Of a stretch of DNA of 64,000 nt, positions 4,667 to 62,560 are shown piece after piece; the stretch's first letter is position 1; each line of letters begins with the position of its first letter. The stretch is taken from NCBI GenBank assembly GCA_041663445.1, contig JBAYMR010000001.1:47393-111392 (forward strand). Direction: 5' to 3'. Origin of the DNA: Candidatus Micrarchaeia archaeon (GTDB taxonomy: Archaea > Micrarchaeota > Micrarchaeia > Anstonellales > Anstonellaceae). The notes under the pieces are model-generated. The model saw only the letters and a list, made by a program, of their open reading frames with translations, was not told the DNA's origin and searched no databases. A program made the position numbers and the translations under genes.

Positions 4667-4820
4667 AACCCCAACATGCAGGTTTTTAGTGGGATCGTAG
4701 GGATTTGCGTCGTTGCCGCTTCGCGACAACTTTGCATCCAAAAGCTTTGCTTTTGTCTGACCCCTAACATGCAGGTTTTCAGTGGGATCGTAGGGATTTG
4801 AACCCTAACATGCAGGTTTT
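4667..4820. repeat. 41-bp direct repeat x2 plus a truncated third copy (CRISPR-like mini-array?)
   Basis: aaccccaacatgcaggtttttagtgggatcgtagggatttg (4667-4707) and acccctaacatgcaggttttcagtgggatcgtagggatttg (4760-4800) are separated by a unique 52-bp segment. A third copy, aaccctaacatgcaggtttt (4801-4820), directly abuts copy 2 and then diverges. No cas genes in the window. Confidence 0.5.
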
Positions 4821-4852
4821 TTCTTTCCCCGAAGGGAGATCTGGAGCCTGCC

Positions 4853-4895
4853 GCGCTACCAAGTTACGCCACGACCCCCTATTTAACTACTTTTT
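4853..4895. repeat. Dispersed repeat family, copy A
   Basis: gcgctaccaagttacgccacgaccccctatttaactac shares aagttacgccacgaccccct with 15384-15403 and resembles gcgctaccgggttatgacgtg in copies C and D. Confidence 0.45.
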
Positions 4896-23297: not shown

Positions 23298-24512
23298 ATG
23301 CTTCAAAAGATAATGGCGCAGGCAAAGGGGACCTGGGACGACCCGTTCAGCCGGTTCCTCGTCCTCCTCATCGTGGTTGCCGCGGGCTATGCGCTTGCCT
23401 TTTCCGCGACAGTGGAGCCTGTTGCGCCGCAGCAGTTTTCCGGCAACGCCACGCTAGACGTTCATTTCTTCTACCACCCGTCATGCCCGCACTGCAAGGA
23501 GCAGATGCCCTATAACCAGCAGATTGCGGAGGAATACCCGGGTGCGAGATGGATTTACCACGACACGTCCGACCCTGTGCAGAACGAGCTTATGGAAAGC
23601 ACGCTTGCGGCACTCGGCAGGAAGCAGGAGGGCGTGCCGACCACGATAATAAACAAGACGGTGATTGTGGGCTTTGACAAGTCAAGCACGCCGCAGAAAA
23701 TCCGGGATGCGATTATCGCAGGCAATGGCGCGGGAAACACTGAAGGGAAGAACGGGACGGCGCAGGGAAAGGCAATCACGTTGCCGCTTGTCGGCACCAT
23801 AAACCCGTACGAATATTCCCTGCCGGCGCTCGCGGTTACCCTCGGGCTTATAGACGGGTTCAACCCGTGCGCGATGTGGGTGCTTGTTTACCTCATCTCC
23901 CTCACGCTCACCCTCAACGACAGGAGGCGCTTCCTCCTGGTGGTGGGCACTTTCCTTCTTGCCTCGGGCGCGCTTTATTTCCTCATAATGGCGGCGTGGC
24001 TCAACGCGTTCCTGTTCGTGGGCTATACGCGCCCGGTGATGATTGGCGTGGGCGCAATCGCGCTTTACTGGGGGGCGGTTTCGCTCCGCGAGTTTTGGAA
24101 AAACAGGGGCGAGATTGCCTGCCAGGTGGGGGACGCCAGGGAAAAGAGGAAGCTGGCGGGGGAAATGCAGGGGCTGCTGTCATCGCCCCTGACGATTGCC
24201 ACGTTTGCGGGCATCGTGGTGCTGGCGGTCACGGTGAATTCCATCGAGTTTGTCTGCTCGGCGGCCATCCCGGCTGTTTTCACGCAGGTGCTTTCGCTGT
24301 CGGGCGTATCGGCGCTGGAGCATTACTTCTACATATTCGTCTATGTGCTGATGTACATGGCGGACGACATCATTGTCTTCGCGCTTGCCTACTTTGCGGT
24401 GGGCGGCACGCTCGGCAGCAAGGTGGCGTCGTACGGGCATGTGATTGGCGCAGCCATACTGATTGCGCTCGGCGTGATGCTTTTGTTTGCGCCAAAGCTG
24501 CTCATGGTCTGA
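23298..24512 (+). CDS. Thioredoxin-like (CPHC) domain fused to a CcdA/DsbD-family membrane thiol-disulfide transporter
   Basis: HPSCPHCKEQ thioredoxin active site in the N-terminal exported domain. The C-terminal 6-8 TM region carries LGLIDGFNPCAMW (DsbD/CcdA conserved Cys). ORF begins at 23178; start placed at MLQKIM. Confidence 0.65.
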   Translation: MLQKIMAQAKGTWDDPFSRFLVLLIVVAAGYALAFSATVEPVAPQQFSGNATLDVHFFYHPSCPHCKEQMPYNQQIAEEYPGARWIYHDTSDPVQNELMESTLAALGRKQEGVPTTIINKTVIVGFDKSSTPQKIRDAIIAGNGAGNTEGKNGTAQGKAITLPLVGTINPYEYSLPALAVTLGLIDGFNPCAMWVLVYLISLTLTLNDRRRFLLVVGTFLLASGALYFLIMAAWLNAFLFVGYTRPVMIGVGAIALYWGAVSLREFWKNRGEIACQVGDAREKRKLAGEMQGLLSSPLTIATFAGIVVLAVTVNSIEFVCSAAIPAVFTQVLSLSGVSALEHYFYIFVYVLMYMADDIIVFALAYFAVGGTLGSKVASYGHVIGAAILIALGVMLLFAPKLLMV

Positions 24513-24684
24513 CCCCCGCCGGGTTCTCCGCCAGCTTGCCTGCCATCGCCATGGCCGCCCGCAGCAGGGCTGCCCATTCCCCACCCCGGGGCGCAGGCTT
24601 TTGCAGGCAGCCGCCACGCGGGCGGCAGGGGACGCCTTTTTAATATTTTAGCGACTGATAGGGAACAAGAATAAGGGTGGTTAT

Positions 24685-25722
24685 TTGTCGGGCAAACCGT
24701 TTGCAGTTCCTCTTTTGGCGATAATCGGCATTTTTGCGCTCATCCTGCTTTCAGGCTGCCTGGCGCAGGGCTGCTCTTCGGACAAGAGCTGCAAGGCGTG
24801 GCAATTCTGCGACACCGCGAAAAAGGCATGCGCGCTGCGCGACGGGTACTGCAACGCTGACAGCGAATGCAACGACGCGCTCAAGGCATGCCCGGCGGCA
24901 ACGCACCAGTGCGCGTTCCTTGAGAACAGGTGCAGGAACGACGGCGACTGCGGAAGCTGGCAGGTTTGCGATTCAACAGGCAACAACACCTGCAGGCCGC
25001 GCGCAGGCTATTGCGACGACGACTCGGTTTGCGACACCGCCACCGAGGTCTGCAGCCAAAGCAGGCACGTCTGCGTGCCCAAGCCCGGCGGCTGCTCGAA
25101 CCAGTTCGACTGCGAATCGTGGCAGATGTGCAACATGACGTCCAAGAGGTGCATACCGCTCACCGGAAGGTGCGCCTCGGACGTGGACTGCTCGCTATGG
25201 CAGGTGTGCAACACCACAAGCATGGTATGCGCGGTGAAGCCAGGCTTCTGCAACAACGACCTGGACTGCGAAAGCTTCATGATTTGCGACAGGGCGCTCA
25301 AGCGCTGCGTGGTGTCGTCCGATTCATGCCTGACCGACACGGACTGCCGCGACTGGGAGCTTTGCAACACAGGGACGAACAAGTGCGAGGCGCAGCGCGG
25401 GCTATGCTCGTCGCTGGCGGACTGCGAGAGCTGGCAAATCTGCAATGCGGCAAGCAGGCGCTGCGCGAGCAGGCCGGGCTACTGCACCAGCAACTCCGAA
25501 TGCAACTCGGCATACCAGCAGTGCGATGTGCCCACCCACAAGTGCATGGTGATGGCGGGCTACTGCACCAAATCGGCGGAATGCGCGTACAACGAGCGCT
25601 GCGAGCTTGACCCGCTTTCCACAAGCGCATACAGGTGCGTAAAGGCGGTGTGCGGGACCAACGACGACTGCCCGGGCGGCTTCTGCGACCTGGTGGACCA
25701 CCAGTGCAAGAGCTCGCCCTGA
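24685..25722 (+). CDS. Secreted or lipid-anchored Cys-rich protein with ~12 tandem ~27-aa repeats of four Cys each
   Basis: Signal peptide ending LLSGC (lipobox-like), then repeats of the form DCESWQ.C(N.T)...C.P.pGyC, each C-x5-C-x6-C-x6-C. 48 Cys in 345 aa. Confidence 0.7.
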   Translation: MSGKPFAVPLLAIIGIFALILLSGCLAQGCSSDKSCKAWQFCDTAKKACALRDGYCNADSECNDALKACPAATHQCAFLENRCRNDGDCGSWQVCDSTGNNTCRPRAGYCDDDSVCDTATEVCSQSRHVCVPKPGGCSNQFDCESWQMCNMTSKRCIPLTGRCASDVDCSLWQVCNTTSMVCAVKPGFCNNDLDCESFMICDRALKRCVVSSDSCLTDTDCRDWELCNTGTNKCEAQRGLCSSLADCESWQICNAASRRCASRPGYCTSNSECNSAYQQCDVPTHKCMVMAGYCTKSAECAYNERCELDPLSTSAYRCVKAVCGTNDDCPGGFCDLVDHQCKSSP

Positions 25723-25788
25723 CCCGGGCGCGGCACCGCAAGCATTTTATTCTTGAGCAGTTTTGTTAGCTGCAACAACCTCTAGGAG

Positions 25789-26892
25789 ATGAACCATATG
25801 GCAACCATAAAGAATGACGAGTTCGGGCCGGAAATGATAGTCCATGTCTATGACCCGAAGACGGGAATGGAAGGGATTGTGGTTATTGACAACACGGCGA
25901 TAGGCCCAGCAAAGGGAGGCGTGAGGCTGGTGCCGGACATCACTGTCGAGGAAGTGTACGGGCTTGCGCGCGCGATGACATGGAAGAACGCGCTTGCGGG
26001 AATCCCGTTCGGAGGGGCGAAGTCCGGCATCAAGGCGCCGGGCAACGCGCCGAACAAGGCGGAGCTTGTGCGCGCGTTCTCCGAGAAAATCGCCCAGCTG
26101 GTGCCCTCGAAATACGTGCCCGGGCCGGACATGAACATAGGCGAGAACGAGATGGCAATCATATCAAAGACGATAGGCACGCCAAAAGCGTCCACGGGCA
26201 AGCCGGCCAGCATGGGAGGGCTGCCGCACGAGCTTGGCTCCACGGGCTACGGGGTTTTCCTTGCCACCGAGGTGGCGCTTGAGCATGCGAAGATACCGCT
26301 CGCAGGCGCCACTGTCGCCATCGAGGGGTTCGGCAACGTGGGGACGTTCACCGCGAAGTTCCTCACCGGGAAGGGCGCAAAGGTGATTGCGGTGTCCGAC
26401 TCGAAAGGCACGGTTTACCTTGAGGGCGGGCTCAAGTACGACACGCTCATGCAGGTGAAGAAGGAGAAGGGCACGGTCACAGCATATCCGGGCGCAAAGG
26501 TGCTTCCGGCTGCCGACCTGTTCGGCATCAAGTGCGACGTGCTCATACCCGGCGCGCGCCCAAACGTGATACGCGCGGACAACATGGGCGCCATAAAGGC
26601 AAAGGTGATTGTCGAGGCTGCAAACATCCCGATGACGCCGGAAATCGAGCTTGCGCTTGTGAAGAGGGGCGTGATAATCGTGCCTGACTTCGTGGCAAAC
26701 GCGGGCGGCGTGATTTCATCATACGTGGAGTTCATCGGCGGGACCGAGCAGCAGATGTTCGCAATGGTCAAGGAAAAGATAACCGCGAACACGCGGCTCG
26801 TGTTCGAGCGCGCAAAGGGCGGGGACCTCCGCTCGGCGGCCCTTGCGATTGCAAAGGAGCGCGTCCTTGACGCAATGAACAGGAAAAAATAA
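25789..26892 (+). CDS. Glu/Leu/Phe/Val dehydrogenase family (367 aa, leucine/valine dehydrogenase-like size)
   Basis: GPAKGGVRL...KNALAGIPFGGAKSGI... catalytic-domain motifs and the GFGNVG NAD(P)-binding glycine loop. Confidence 0.85.
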   Translation: MNHMATIKNDEFGPEMIVHVYDPKTGMEGIVVIDNTAIGPAKGGVRLVPDITVEEVYGLARAMTWKNALAGIPFGGAKSGIKAPGNAPNKAELVRAFSEKIAQLVPSKYVPGPDMNIGENEMAIISKTIGTPKASTGKPASMGGLPHELGSTGYGVFLATEVALEHAKIPLAGATVAIEGFGNVGTFTAKFLTGKGAKVIAVSDSKGTVYLEGGLKYDTLMQVKKEKGTVTAYPGAKVLPAADLFGIKCDVLIPGARPNVIRADNMGAIKAKVIVEAANIPMTPEIELALVKRGVIIVPDFVANAGGVISSYVEFIGGTEQQMFAMVKEKITANTRLVFERAKGGDLRSAALAIAKERVLDAMNRKK

Positions 26893-26904
26893 TGGGGTTA
26901 TGAC

Positions 26905-27783
26905 ATGCTTTGCTTCGTAGCGCTCGCGGTTTTCCTGCTGCTTTCCGTATTCTCAGCGAAGTACAGGCCGCTTGCGCGCCGCGCGCTTGATTGCGTGGCA
27001 AAAAAGGCCACGCTCCGCCCTTGCGACACCGGCCTTGACGAGGAGATAAAGGCGGCGAGCATCGCAGGCATCATGAAGATATCGCCAAAGGGCGCGTCTT
27101 TCCTCAACAGGCACTTCGAGGCGTTCTCGTTCCTGTTCACGCTGCTGTTCTTCGCCTCGCTGTTCTTCGCGCTGCAGGGGCTGTACAATTTCGCGGTATA
27201 CGGGAACTGCAACGGGTTTGAGGGCGGCTTCTGCATCTACTCGGGACTGCAGAACGAGGCGTTCCTCAAGGCGCCGACCTCGCTCCAGGGGATATCCGCA
27301 GGCAACCCCGGCGCAAACATAACCGTGATTGAGTTCGGCTGCTACACCTGCCCCTACACCAAGGCGGCGGAGGATGGCGTGAAGGGGATAATTTCCAGCT
27401 ACGGGAACAGGGTGCATTATGTTTACAAGGCATTCCCGCTCCCCGCCCACCCGTTTTCAAAGGAGGCTGCGCTTGCGGCGCTCTGCGCAAACGACGAGGG
27501 GAAATACTGGGAATACAGGGCTGCGCTCTTCGGCAGGCAGCAGGACGTGATGCAGAACGGCACCGCGGCGCTGTACGGCATTGCAAGCGGGCTCAACCTT
27601 ACATCTTTTGATGCGTGCTACGCGTCGGGCAAGCACAACGACTTGCTGCAGAAGAGCACGGACGAATGCACAGCGTCGGGCATCTACGGCACGCCCACAT
27701 TCTTCGTGAACGGGAAGGCGTTTGCAGGCCCCGGCGCGATAAACGACACCGAGAAGGAAGTGAAGAGGCTGCTTGGCGAGTAG
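26905..27783 (+). CDS. DsbA-like thioredoxin-fold thiol:disulfide oxidoreductase with an N-terminal membrane region
   Basis: CYTCPY (CxxC) active site in a DsbA-like domain; N-terminal hydrophobic segments. Confidence 0.6.
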   Translation: MLCFVALAVFLLLSVFSAKYRPLARRALDCVAKKATLRPCDTGLDEEIKAASIAGIMKISPKGASFLNRHFEAFSFLFTLLFFASLFFALQGLYNFAVYGNCNGFEGGFCIYSGLQNEAFLKAPTSLQGISAGNPGANITVIEFGCYTCPYTKAAEDGVKGIISSYGNRVHYVYKAFPLPAHPFSKEAALAALCANDEGKYWEYRAALFGRQQDVMQNGTAALYGIASGLNLTSFDACYASGKHNDLLQKSTDECTASGIYGTPTFFVNGKAFAGPGAINDTEKEVKRLLGE

Positions 27784-28978
27784 GATGGATGTTGACAAGC
27801 TACGCGCGGATTTCCCTGTTCTCCAATCCTCCAAGGCAATCTATTTTGACTCGGCCTGCACGACGCTCAAGCCGCGCATTGTGATTGATGCTGAAAGCGG
27901 CTACTACTCGGAGCTTTCCGCGTGCGCGGGCAGGTCGCACCATTCGCTTGCCAAAAGGACGGAGGAGAAATTCGAGGCGTCGCGGGAGAGGATTGCGCGC
28001 TTTGTCGGCGCAGGGAAAGGGCAGCTTGTTTTCACCAAGAACACGACGGAAGCGCTCAACCTTGTCATCCGCTCGCTGGATTATTCCTCGCGCAAAAAAA
28101 TCGTCGCCACGCCGCTGGAGCACCACTCGCTCCTGCTGCCGATAATGGAGCAGCAGAGAAGGGGCGTTGCGAAGATGGAAATGCTTGGCGTGCGGCAGGA
28201 CGGCACGATTGACGAATCGTCCCTTTCGCTCATTGACAGGGGCACTGCGCTCGTTGCAGTCCACCACACCACGAACACCACGGGCATGCGCGCGCCATTG
28301 GAGAAAATCGTGAAGGCGGCGCATGACGCCGGCGCGCTTGTGCTTGTGGACGGCGCGCAGGGCGTGCCGCACTCGCGCGTGGACTTTTCAAGGCTTGGCG
28401 CGGACTTCCTTGCCTTTTCGGGGCACAAGATGTGCGGCCCGACGGGCATTGGCTGCCTCGTCGGGAAGAAGGAGGCGTTTGAGGGGCTGGACACGTTCAT
28501 TGTGGGCGGGGAGACGGTGGAAACCGTGAGCCTGCAGGGCGTGAAATGGAAGGCGGCGCCCAAGCGGTTCGAGGGCGGCATACAGAATTATGCTGGCGCC
28601 ATCGGGCTTGCCGCGGCTTGCGATTACCTCGCGAAAATCGGCATGCAAAACATCGAGGAACATGAAAAGAGGATGGCGCGCGCGCTCATCGAGGCGATAA
28701 ACGCCATTCCAGGCTCGGCAATCTACGGCAGCCCAGACCCGTCAAAGCGCTGCGCCCTGGTTTCCTTCAACCTGAAAGGCGTTTCCGCGCACCAGGCCGC
28801 GCTCATGGCGGACTCGCTTGGCAAAATTGCGATGCGCTCGGGCGTTTTCTGCGCGGAGCCGGCTGCCAATGCGCTTGGCTTTGGAAAGGGAGCTGCGCGC
28901 GCATCGCTCTACCTGTACAATACCGGGGAGGAAGTGCGCATCTTCGCCGAGACGATGGGGAAGATTGCAAAGCTCTGA
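27773..28978 (+). CDS. Cysteine desulfurase (class-V aminotransferase, SufS/NifS-like)
   Basis: ...LVLVDGAQGVPH...FSGHKMCGPTGIGCL...: PLP-lysine SGHK and the catalytic Cys loop. Confidence 0.85.
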   Translation: MASRMDVDKLRADFPVLQSSKAIYFDSACTTLKPRIVIDAESGYYSELSACAGRSHHSLAKRTEEKFEASRERIARFVGAGKGQLVFTKNTTEALNLVIRSLDYSSRKKIVATPLEHHSLLLPIMEQQRRGVAKMEMLGVRQDGTIDESSLSLIDRGTALVAVHHTTNTTGMRAPLEKIVKAAHDAGALVLVDGAQGVPHSRVDFSRLGADFLAFSGHKMCGPTGIGCLVGKKEAFEGLDTFIVGGETVETVSLQGVKWKAAPKRFEGGIQNYAGAIGLAAACDYLAKIGMQNIEEHEKRMARALIEAINAIPGSAIYGSPDPSKRCALVSFNLKGVSAHQAALMADSLGKIAMRSGVFCAEPAANALGFGKGAARASLYLYNTGEEVRIFAETMGKIAKL

Positions 28979-30127: not shown

Positions 30128-30982
30128 TTACATGAACTCCTCGACATACTTCGTGATGTCGGTGGATGAGATGTCGTGCTTCACGAGCGGCGCGTCCTTT
30201 ATGAACGGTATTTCGTCGGTGTAAATCGGCTTTTCGGATTTGTAGAACACGCCGATTGGCCAGCGCTCGGTTTCCTGCGCGCGCTTCATTGCCGCGTCCA
30301 GGCTGGACGGGTCGTGCCCTTCGGCTTCGAGCTTGTAGATTTTCTTCTGGTACAGGTCGTATGGAAGGTCTTTCCGCCAGCTCACGCAGGGCTGGAACAC
30401 GTCTATGTGGGCGATGCCCCTGTGGGCGATGCCTTGGGAAATCAGGCCGGTAAGATGGGGAATGTCCCCTGCAAAGCCGCGCGCGACAAACGTTGCCCCG
30501 GCGGAAAGGGACATCAGGATGGGGTTGATTTCGCGCTCTATCGCGCCGTTGGGCGTGGACTTCGTCTTTGTGCCCTGCTTCGTGGTCGGCGAGGTTTGCC
30601 CCGTGGTCAGCCCGTATATCTCGTTGTCCTGGACGATGTATGTGAAGTCCATGTTGCGCCGCATCGCGTGCACGAAGTGCCCCATGCCGATGCCGTACCC
30701 GTCGCCGTCCCCGCCCACCGCAATCACCGTGAGCGAATTGTTTGCGAGGTGGATGCCCTGCGCAGGGGGGAGGGAACGGCCGTGGAGCCCTTCAAAGCCG
30801 TATGCCTTTATGAAATGCGGGAGCTTGGAGCCGCAGCCCACACCGGAAACGACCACGGCCTCGTGCTGAGGGATGTTGAGCTTTGCAAGTGCGCCTTTCA
30901 GCGCTATCAGTATGCCGAAGTCGCCGCAGCCAGGGCACCAGGTGGGCATGTGGCCGGAGTTGAGTTCTGCAACGGTAACCAT
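30128..30982 (-). CDS. 2-oxoacid:ferredoxin oxidoreductase beta subunit (TPP-binding)
   Basis: C-terminal TPP-binding GDG...N region and an N-terminal Cys cluster (CPGCGDF). Confidence 0.85.
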   Translation of the reverse strand: MVTVAELNSGHMPTWCPGCGDFGILIALKGALAKLNIPQHEAVVVSGVGCGSKLPHFIKAYGFEGLHGRSLPPAQGIHLANNSLTVIAVGGDGDGYGIGMGHFVHAMRRNMDFTYIVQDNEIYGLTTGQTSPTTKQGTKTKSTPNGAIEREINPILMSLSAGATFVARGFAGDIPHLTGLISQGIAHRGIAHIDVFQPCVSWRKDLPYDLYQKKIYKLEAEGHDPSSLDAAMKRAQETERWPIGVFYKSEKPIYTDEIPFIKDAPLVKHDISSTDITKYVEEFM

Positions 30983-61472: not shown

Positions 61473-61545
61473 GGGGGAATGGGCTAACCTGGTATGCTAC
61501 TAGGTTTGGGACCTAGTGATTCGAGTTCAAATCTCGATTCCCCCA
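61473..61545 (+). tRNA. tRNA-Pro (anticodon UGG)
   Basis: Acceptor GGGGGAA/UUCCCCC, anticodon arm CUAGG-UUUGGGA-CCUAG, T arm UCGAG-UUCAAAU-CUCGA, discriminator A. Confidence 0.85.
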
Positions 61546-61576
61546 TTTTGCAATCATATCTCGTTTTGGTGCAAAC

Positions 61577-62560
61577 ATGAAATACGGAAACTCGGAATTG
61601 CGCGGGAAATTCGTGCTTGGCCCCATGGCGGCATACACCGACATTGCGTTCAGGCTTCTTTGCAGGCGCGCGGGCGCGGCGATGTGCTTCACCGAGTTTG
61701 CAAATGCAGAAGCCATCAGCCGGGACGGGAAGAATACCGGCGCGCTTCTCCGGACGTGCAATGAGGAGATGCCCGTCGGCATACAGATATTCGGCGCAAC
61801 GCCCGAGGCGATGGGAAAGGCTGCGGCAACAATAAGCGCGCGCGTGCAGGGCGGGGAGCTGTTTGCCTCGTGCATAGACATCAACTTCGGCTGCCCGGCA
61901 GGGAGCGTAATCCGCGCGGGCGCGGGAAGCGCGCTTTTGAAAAGCCCGGAGAGGATGCGCGCGATTGCCGAGGCGTGCGTGGAGCGCTCGGAAATCCCTG
62001 TGACCGCAAAGATACGGGCGGGGTGGAAAAGCGACAGCGCAGTGGAGCTTGCAAAAATGCTGGAAAGCGCCGGAGTGTCGGGCATCACGGTGCACTGGAG
62101 GACTGCGACAGAGGGGAGGAAAAGGCAGGGCGGCTGGGAAGCGCTGCGCGAGGTCAAGGGGGCGGTGGGCATCCCGGTGATTGGCAATGGCGGCGCGTCC
62201 ACCCCTGAAAAGGCAGTGCGGTTCCTTGACGAGACGGGCTGCGATGCGGTGATGATTGCGTCGGCGGCACTGGGCAACCCGCACATTTTTTCGCAGGCGA
62301 ACGATTTGCTGGAAAAGGGGAGATACAAAGAAACGCTTTGGGGCGAAAAGCGCGCATCGTTCCTGGAATACTGCTCGCTCGCCCAGAAATACGAGGTTGC
62401 AACGCCCAAGAGGATGCGCGCGCAGGCAATCGAATGGGTCACGGGCTTCAACGGCGTGAAAGAGGCAAGGAAAAGGCTCAACGCGGCAAAAACAGGCCAG
62501 GAGATTGAAGGGATAGTGTCGGGGTTCGAGCCCTCAACAGTTCAGGCTAACCAGACATGA
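61577..62560 (+). CDS. tRNA-dihydrouridine synthase (Dus family, FMN-dependent TIM barrel)
   Basis: …LGPMAAYTDIAFRLLCRRAGA…IDINFGCPAGSV… with the catalytic Cys and a K/R-rich C-terminal helical domain. Confidence 0.85.
   Translation: MKYGNSELRGKFVLGPMAAYTDIAFRLLCRRAGAAMCFTEFANAEAISRDGKNTGALLRTCNEEMPVGIQIFGATPEAMGKAAATISARVQGGELFASCIDINFGCPAGSVIRAGAGSALLKSPERMRAIAEACVERSEIPVTAKIRAGWKSDSAVELAKMLESAGVSGITVHWRTATEGRKRQGGWEALREVKGAVGIPVIGNGGASTPEKAVRFLDETGCDAVMIASAALGNPHIFSQANDLLEKGRYKETLWGEKRASFLEYCSLAQKYEVATPKRMRAQAIEWVTGFNGVKEARKRLNAAKTGQEIEGIVSGFEPSTVQANQT

Follow-up and report, generated by a model that had tools for sequence, protein, structure and literature searches.

The thiol-disulfide systems to which the genes described here can best be compared are the DsbA/BdbD-type enzymes, which introduce disulfides, and the DsbD/CcdA-type membrane proteins, which carry reductant to the outside. 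ScsB-ScsC represents another DsbD-type transporter with a thioredoxin partner. To our knowledge, the formation and repair of extracytoplasmic disulfides in archaea, and especially in DPANN episymbionts, is poorly known, and our literature search on disulfide systems of DPANN or Micrarchaeota found nothing specific. The CcdA-Etrx pathways of Streptococcus pneumoniae provide a comparable reductant conduit (PMC3914529) and, among secreted proteins, a rigid stalk is the role that has been proposed for the Cys-rich repeats of TraA (PMC3325183). Here, we analyse a stretch of 64,000 nucleotides from a Candidatus Micrarchaeia archaeon (the window, whose numbering is used throughout), in which five co-directional genes on the plus strand, termed g1 to g5, include those for a thioredoxin-membrane fusion protein (g1), a Cys-rich lipoprotein precursor (g2), and a DsbA-like oxidoreductase (g4). 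Related loci are given L-numbers, and relative proteins P-numbers. The explanation that we favour on balance is that g2 is a fixed-length, lipid-anchored surface rod, whereas g4 and g1 would belong to a general thiol-disulfide machinery of which this rod is a heavy client.

The protein g2 contains 49 Cys, which represent 14.2% of its residues: one is the lipobox Cys, and the other 48 are distributed over twelve four-Cys modules, 23-29 residues long, the last two of which constitute a divergent C-terminal cap. A sequence-only reading of the window, made prior to any database search, had counted the twelve modules and their 48 Cys correctly, even though the uniform spacing it proposed, C-x5-C-x6-C-x6-C, has to be replaced by C-x5-C-x5/6-C-x6/7-C. 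This regular array is far beyond chance, and g2 is the sole strongly Cys-rich plausible gene in the window, the other open reading frames (ORFs) with more than 8% Cys being few, short, and mostly overlapping larger ORFs, with one of them antisense within g2. The lipobox-like signal peptide noted in the same reading is also borne out: after an N-terminal hydrophobic signal, the residues LLSGC fit the lipobox pattern [LVI][ASTVI][GAS]C at Cys25, as defined in a study that predicts lipoproteins to be prevalent in DPANN (PMC12462473). In an alignment of seven orthologues G24 and C25 are invariant, as are all Cys and many module-specific residues, and the C-terminal cap is kept. The protein is almost certainly secreted and rich in disulfides, and we infer lipidation at Cys25 and disulfide formation within the modules.

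Twelve modules and 49 Cys are found in all eight complete orthologues checked, down to the 50% identity that marks the end of the range, where the orthologue from Candidatus Anstonella stagnisolia (order Candidatus Anstonellales, same class) is placed. When modules are compared one by one, module i of the window protein best matches module i of the orthologue in 12 of 12 cases for L090 and in 11 of 12 for L092, with a mean similarity score of ~86 at the same position and ~42 at other positions. Compared with the copy in L006 (85% DNA identity), the ratio of nonsynonymous to synonymous substitution rates (dN/dS) is 0.20, and 49/49 Cys are retained. A recent expansion of the repeat was considered and rejected, as the modules are too diverged and Tandem Repeats Finder detects no DNA-level tandem repeat in g2, which makes the array old. 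The array is thus an old one, with a frozen copy number and non-interchangeable modules, and these two features would be those of a structural element whose length matters; judged on sequence, the pattern is unlike that of a fast-evolving repeat adhesin.

The distribution of g2 was at first misleading, since a word-indexed protein search returned only four relatives. The idea of g2 as a rare, lineage-specific insertion was withdrawn after neighbourhood look-ups and a metagenome scan recovered many orthologues, which makes that scarcity an artefact of search sensitivity. On contigs encoding relatives of g4, a gene for a protein of 335-360 residues without Pfam annotation lies directly 5' of the dehydrogenase every time, and these genes turned out to be g2 orthologues, with 50-86% identity and exactly 49 Cys each. 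A further 44 loci came from the metagenome scan, with at least 45% identity in 30 cases, and orthologues are also present on eight further contigs (L003, L006, L087-L092), whereas a scan of viral contigs found no g2 relatives. The g2 gene itself is called identically on a public metagenome contig of 164.8 kb that includes the window (ENA ERZ27247350 k141_2094340).

Contrary to the sequence-only reading, which saw no described family in the repeat, g2 matches Pfam DUF5885 (PF19232) with 37.8 bits, above the gathering score of 33.2 (E 1.9e-9), and its relatives P0001 and P0002 carry a precomputed match to this family, which has no assigned function and of which a literature search gave no mention. 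This match is partial, falling in three stretches; since it covers only part of the 265-position model, DUF5885 fails to describe the twelve-module architecture. In the AlphaFold2 model of g2 (predicted local distance difference test, pLDDT, 79.8; predicted template modelling score, pTM, 0.35; blocks at ~80-89), every module consists of a short turn and a beta-hairpin, and the whole, confident locally and loose globally, would behave like a string of well-defined beads whose mutual orientation is undefined. The comparison of such a model with known structures, suggested as a check by the same reading, gave no significant family match: Foldseek against the PDB returned nothing at E<=1e-3, one weak match being the N-terminal part of Dkk4 (E 0.18, probability 0.54), and other weak likenesses being the Cys-rich region of an Entamoeba lectin, draxin, knottins, EGF, and TNFR repeats. 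The resemblance to EGF or Dickkopf modules is thus faint only: neither EGF nor Dickkopf_N is found in g2 by Pfam at E<=0.1, a profile search of PDB sequences gave no match, and the distant relative P0157 reaches 17.8 bits with Dickkopf_N, below the threshold of 25.

An exhaustive HMMER search identified 238 cluster representatives with the g2-type module. Among them are lipoproteins from archaea, a large number of lipoproteins from high-GC bacteria, and giant proteins with 1,800-2,000 residues. In other phyla, these modules precede RCC1 propellers and thrombospondin-3 (TSP3) repeats, and metalloprotease-like HExxH regions following the modules were read directly in the sequences. The NCBIfam scan at E<=0.1 did not return TIGR04201, the TraA repeat; its sole match was NF033759 (TraA full length), located in the repeat region, with 19.7 bits against a cut-off of 750 (E 2.6e-4).

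From these features, we propose that g2 would be an extracytoplasmic rod, anchored by a lipid at its N-terminus and made of twelve non-interchangeable modules of ~27 residues, in each of which the turn and the beta-hairpin would probably be stapled by two disulfides, amounting to 24 per rod, and that it would end in the conserved cap. Within the class Candidatus Micrarchaeia, one clade that extends to Anstonellales would have this rod as a core component of its surface. The rod would serve there as a rigid spacer or stalk, a role that the same module would also have where it is encoded 5' of head domains in bacterial proteins. The fixed length of the rod suggests such a role at the cell surface, through which these organisms come into contact with their hosts.

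A related but distinct role for the rod would be recognition or attachment, with the cap as a tip binding the host cell or an envelope partner, and the modules setting its reach. The cap would be the most distal part of g2 because the N-terminus is anchored, it is conserved among orthologues, and the same modules present head domains in bacteria. In addition, an integrative element of ~11.3 kb (L005 352-11632), located next to tRNA-Pro in a related Micrarchaeon and syntenic with window 61473-61927, with a tyrosine integrase and a serine recombinase at opposite ends, encodes a secreted Cys-rich protein of 550 residues (P0003, 5254-6906). The centre of this protein shares 79% DNA and 78% protein identity with window 25386-25723, that is, with the last three modules of g2 and its cap. 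Apparently, this mobile element took up the tip of the surface rod from its host, which would be a hint that interactions take place at the distal cap. However, no recognisable binding domain is present in g2, and its purifying selection and fixed module number are unlike those of fast-evolving adhesins. We regard attachment as a possible function, but an improbable one.

As for the machinery that would serve the proposed stalk, the disulfides of g2 would be introduced by g4, a putative membrane-tethered enzyme of the DsbA/BdbD type. The sequence-only reading had described g4 as a membrane-anchored DsbA-like CxxC oxidoreductase, and this description is confirmed: g4 belongs to the DsbA-type proteins by its matches to Thioredoxin_4 (PF13462; 80.1 bits over a threshold of 23.2) and DSBA (PF01323; 54.6 bits over 25.6), with a DsbA domain at residues 128-284 and CYTC at C146-C149. 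Both Cys, as well as T263 and P264, are invariant among 22 relatives, the T-P pair occupying the position of the cis-proline loop. The N-terminal 125 residues (26905-27279), which match no Pfam family, have two transmembrane (TM) helices and five invariant Cys (C3, C30, C40, C102, and C110), and may act as a built-in redox relay or re-oxidation module. About 500 full-length relatives of g4 were found, and all those with a source name come from Micrarchaeota. Neither DsbB nor VKOR is present among the genes called in the public locus of 21 kb, a genome-wide search for them not having been made.

The protein g1 would act on the reducing side. Electrons would pass from cytoplasmic NADPH through thioredoxin reductase and a small glutaredoxin-like protein to g1 and then outside, as in DsbD/CcdA, and the external CPHC motif would reduce or reshuffle wrong disulfides, either directly or through g4. 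The gene structures, the conserved Cys, the constant number of modules, the synteny counts, the family sizes, and the operon contexts are observed, whereas the direction of this flow, the membrane topology, and the use of g2 as a substrate are what we infer. Foldseek against the PDB relates g1 to thioredoxins with a probability of 1.0, only thioredoxin domains being returned, and the sequence support for a thioredoxin or glutaredoxin domain is modest: an NCBIfam match to YruB-type glutaredoxin (E 4e-5), a PDB profile match to glutaredoxin (E 2.6e-4), and otherwise only weak thioredoxin, glutaredoxin, or DSBA matches. An alignment of 31 relatives shows five invariant Cys, namely C63, C66, C191 (in NPCAMW, TM1), C275 (in a basic loop), and C320 (in EFVCS, TM4). 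The AlphaFold2 model (pLDDT 77.6) places six membrane helices after the thioredoxin domain (175-205, 209-241, 245-268, 300-334, 339-367, and 372-397); the first and the fourth of these are interrupted (186-190 and 320-323) at C191 and C320. In this model, g1 has the layout of DsbD/CcdA, with six TM helices and one conserved Cys in each of TM1 and TM4.

The sequence-only reading had seen in g1 a CPHC thioredoxin fused to a transporter of the CcdA/DsbD type. The motif, the thioredoxin-like domain, and the membrane domain all stand, but the family label does not stand by sequence. When 31 full-length and 12 cropped members were searched at E<=10, the membrane domain matched no Pfam family, including DsbD (PF02683) and DsbD_2 (PF13386); it had no NCBIfam match, and the PDB profile search gave 0 matches. 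Alignment with hhalign was not significant against either Escherichia coli DsbD (E 0.5) or a thin alignment of four CcdA sequences (E 0.17), the best local alignment, itself non-significant, pairing the "PC" motifs of TM1 in g1 and DsbD/CcdA. Given how thin the CcdA alignment is, a remote homology may still exist. An internal 3+3 repeat of the membrane domain was likewise not significant by hhalign.

The g1 family is very large. Among the candidates scored, 3,764 proteins belong to it at E<=1e-3, and at least 599 stretches lie in GTDB species-representative genomes, most of the named genomes being outside Micrarchaeia. It ranges over DPANN archaea, bacteria of the candidate phyla radiation (CPR), Dehalococcoidia, Desulfobulbales, and some Alphaproteobacteria, including Methylocystis rosea and Bradyrhizobium. 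Its genetic context is the one to be expected of a reductant conduit of the DsbD/CcdA kind. In L034 and L055, a small glutaredoxin-like gene is located directly 5' of the g1 relative and a thioredoxin reductase gene directly 3', and in L069 the order is glutaredoxin, thioredoxin reductase, and g1. In L068, the thioredoxin part is encoded as a separate lipoprotein, followed by the gene of the membrane domain, and the vicinity includes a DsbA-like gene as well as a peroxiredoxin. Moreover, a DsbA-like gene directly adjoins g1 in five CPR or Nanoarchaeota loci. The Bradyrhizobium g1 follows two large polytopic ORFs that we read as cydAB, and the Roseibium g1 follows a CxxCH-rich ORF that we read as a multihaem cytochrome, both being our own readings of the sequence without a Pfam check. 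Given the glutaredoxin, thioredoxin reductase, and DsbA-like neighbours, g1 probably has a DsbD-like role, although it is not established as a member of the DsbD/CcdA family. Tentatively, and with somewhat more doubt than confidence, we suggest that the g1 family is an unrecognised and very widespread transmembrane electron transporter for thiol-disulfide exchange, with the signature NPCAMW...C(loop)...EFVCS, which together with g4 would constitute the long-missing extracytoplasmic disulfide system of small-genome archaea, with g2 as its reporter substrate.

A conduit of this type would also allow the opposite state for g2, whose Cys would be kept reduced by electrons from g1 to act as an extracellular thiol buffer or metal sink. 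g1 does look like a reductant conduit, and its relatives are often found beside ArsR-type regulators and ArsP-like permeases. We nevertheless consider this very unlikely: the even C-x5/6 spacing and the confident hairpins of g2 resemble disulfide-rich mini-domains (with the weak knottin, Dkk, and EGF-like matches), the same modules are stalks in multidomain proteins, and a DsbA-type enzyme is encoded nearby.

The relation between the rod and the redox genes can be approached through their neighbourhood, for which 22 informative metagenome loci and the eight further orthologue contigs, with sequence 3' of g3, were compared. The sequence-only reading had proposed a dedicated oxidative-folding or isomerisation system for the repeat protein; in such a maturation module, g1 and g4 would exist mainly to fold or proof-read g2 as one functional unit. 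The need of g2 for ~24 predicted disulfides would be in line with it, and so is part of the gene order: g4 is located two genes 3' of g2 in 17 of the 22 metagenome loci and in all eight contigs, and the g2-g3-g4 core persists while both outer flanks rearrange. However, the g4-g5 pair is missing in L103, L112, and L114, where g2-g3 persist and g3 abuts the deoxyhypusine synthase gene; in L120, another gene comes after g3; and in L118 there is no g4 match within 1.1 kb after g3. Conversely, two more distant Micrarchaeota loci (L012 3156-5338; L015 1793-3888) carry the g4-g5 pair without g2 or g3. The presence of g1 within 6 kb 5' of g2 is limited to loci whose g2 has 73% identity or more, and the two genes are directly adjacent in no loci but the window, L102, and L103. 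In the other cases, a gene for a lipobox protein of 744-759 residues with a Beta_propel domain lies between both (L006 9070-11334; L087 2355-4634; L088 2358-4592). Moreover, the unrelated dehydrogenase always separates g2 from g4, and promoter-like and terminator-like signals separate the genes. Since g1 and g4 are far commoner than g2, and g4 occurs without g2, the redox genes appear to be general, and a dedicated module is quite unlikely. What is left of that proposal is the conserved g2-g3-g4 order and a mostly sustained co-occurrence of g4 with g2, whereas g1 accompanies g2 only in the closest relatives, and the redox genes are widespread and each absent at some loci.

Some further features of this neighbourhood deserve a mention. 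g3 lies directly 3' of g2 in every locus with sequence there, with the exception of L126, where 3.6 kb separate them, and the g2-g3 link is thus tighter than the g2-g4 link (window 24685-26892; L003, L006, L087-L122). The g1-g2 gap in the window (24512 to 24685) is of only 172 bp, from which the beta-propeller gene would have been deleted in the window or inserted in its relatives. Of the gene pairs in this region, g4 with g5 (window 26905-28978) is the one whose conservation reaches deepest, and g5 is probably not part of the disulfide function.

At the other extreme, g1, g2, and g4 may be neighbours by descent only, in a region that is collinear in the clade, with g2 being folded otherwise, e.g., by air oxidation or other oxidoreductases. 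The genes for deoxyhypusine synthase and the subunits of 2-oxoacid:ferredoxin oxidoreductase (POR), together with g3 and g5, are equally syntenic across the orthologue contigs, so that the conserved order is weak evidence of functional coupling. In addition, no relative of g1, g3, or g4 was detected near the distant g2-type proteins (34-42% identity; L123-L136 and L004). On the other side, an extracellular protein with 48 structural Cys would be an obvious client of any DsbA-type enzyme, and the g2-g3-g4 core survives rearrangement on both sides, and we take descent alone to be an unlikely explanation.

Several points weigh against our favoured explanation of a surface rod served by a general machinery. 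The sequence of g4 does not seem to discriminate between an oxidase, an isomerase, and a ScsC-like protein in a reduced state. The g2 stalk has no head domain of its own to space or present. The g2-g3-g4 order is tighter than its flanks, which could mean a link more specific than that of a general machinery. The membrane domain of g1, judged by the searches above, has no detectable homology to DsbD/CcdA, and its putative internal 3+3 repeat is non-significant. Finally, CcdA/DsbD_2-like ORFs occur near g1 relatives in three loci (L056 3389-4090, directly 5'; L036 5985-6707; L068 665-1714), from which g1 and canonical CcdA may not be redundant, and g1 may do something different.

The features of the locus are collected in Table 1. 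The arrangement of three co-directional genes with a dehydrogenase between the second and the third, as initially described, agrees with the ORFs, and the dehydrogenase is of the ELFV family. The start codon of g1 is an ATG with GGAGG ahead, and that of g2 is preceded by GGGTGG; the gap between g3 and g4 is of 12 bp, and g5 begins 2 bp past the g4 stop. A bacterial promoter scan found no more sites than in shuffled sequence and was not used: it relies on a bacterial model, and the organism is an archaeon. For this reason, only the terminator-like site and the direct reading of the A/T-rich box were considered, according to which g1 and the genes in the neighbourhood of g2 appear to be separately transcribed.

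Table 1. Features of the g1-g5 locus, in coordinates of the 64,000-nucleotide window.
Feature	Coordinates	Strand	Description	Basis
g1	23298..24512	+	404 residues; N-terminal TM anchor, predicted extracytoplasmic thioredoxin-like domain, six-helix membrane domain	ORF call
CPHC active-site motif of g1	23484..23495	+	C63-C66 of the thioredoxin-like domain	Invariant in alignment
Hairpin and T-run	24620..24650	+	Putative terminator-like site 3' of g1	Terminator scan
TATA-like box	overlapping 24620..24650	+	A/T-rich TTTTTAATATTTT, ~40 nucleotides 5' of the g2 start, overlapping the hairpin	Direct sequence reading
g2	24685..25722	+	Cys-rich lipoprotein precursor of 345 residues; TTG start	Pfam DUF5885
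g2 signal peptide	24685..24759	+	Ends in the lipobox L-S-G-C (Cys25)	Sequence, orthologue alignment
g2 modules	24772..25719	+	Twelve four-Cys modules, residues 30-345	Cys map, module orthology, AlphaFold2
g3	25789..26892	+	Glu/Leu/Phe/Val (ELFV)-family dehydrogenase	Pfam ELFV_dehydrog, 199 bits; synteny
g4	26905..27783	+	Membrane-anchored DsbA-like oxidoreductase	Pfam Thioredoxin_4 and DSBA; alignment of 22 relatives
g5	27785..28978	+	Class V aminotransferase, SufS-like motif RSGVFCAEP	Pfam Aminotran_5, 362 bits

Other genes of the window, such as a tRNA-Trp with an intron and those for deoxyhypusine synthase and 2-oxoacid:ferredoxin oxidoreductase, are consistent with an archaeon. The tRNA-Trp (4782-4878) spans 97 nucleotides, which implies the intron, a common feature in archaea. 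The beta subunit of the oxidoreductase carries an intein in L088 (10250-12199; Intein_splicing and LAGLIDADG_3), and the window copy (30128-30982) does not. The tRNA-Pro of the window (61473-61545) matches L005 11633-11781 in two perfect pieces 74 nucleotides apart, with the break just past the anticodon; this would be consistent with an intron in the L005 gene without counterpart in the window copy, and ARAGORN did not call the tRNA-Pro of L005.

Altogether, the locus offers a candidate set composed of an unusual DsbA-like enzyme, a thioredoxin-membrane fusion outside the described families, and a rod with 24 predicted disulfides. The g1-type fusion is present in hundreds of uncultivated lineages and, if the proposal is true, the rod would be a demanding and easily assayed substrate for the disulfide system.

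Regarding its similarity with known systems, the best structural matches of g2 are Cys-rich proteins of Pithovirus, Cedratvirus, and Pandoravirus in the BFVD database, annotated as "transmembrane" or "EGF-like domain" proteins, to which Foldseek relates it with E 5e-12 to 1e-5, a probability of ~1.0, and 18-27% identity. In these matches both structures are predicted and the template modelling (TM) scores are of 0.1-0.2, low values due to the flexibility of the rods; the viral hosts are eukaryotic, and the functions of these proteins are likewise not described. Like g2, TraA from Myxococcus is a secreted surface protein with tandem Cys-rich repeats. However, TraA carries a head of the PA14 type and is anchored through MYXO-CTERM, whereas g2 is headless and has an N-terminal lipobox as its anchor. 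With DsbA/BdbD, g4 shares the CxxC motif and the T-P pair at the cis-proline loop, in addition to its scores above threshold, and it differs from them in its clade-specific, Cys-bearing N-terminal region with two TM helices. In the case of DsbD/CcdA, the differences are found in the motifs, which are NPCAMW and EFVCS in g1 instead of the PC-x-x-P type, in the third invariant Cys that g1 has in a predicted cytoplasmic loop, and in the location of its thioredoxin domain at the N-terminus, where an additional TM helix tethers it. Even so, g1 resembles DsbD/CcdA both in its design, with a thioredoxin-fold domain predicted to face outwards and a six-helix membrane domain with Cys in TM1 and TM4, and in its company, as its relatives in other lineages share operons with genes for thioredoxin reductase and a small protein of the glutaredoxin type, and a DsbA-like gene is adjacent in several lineages.

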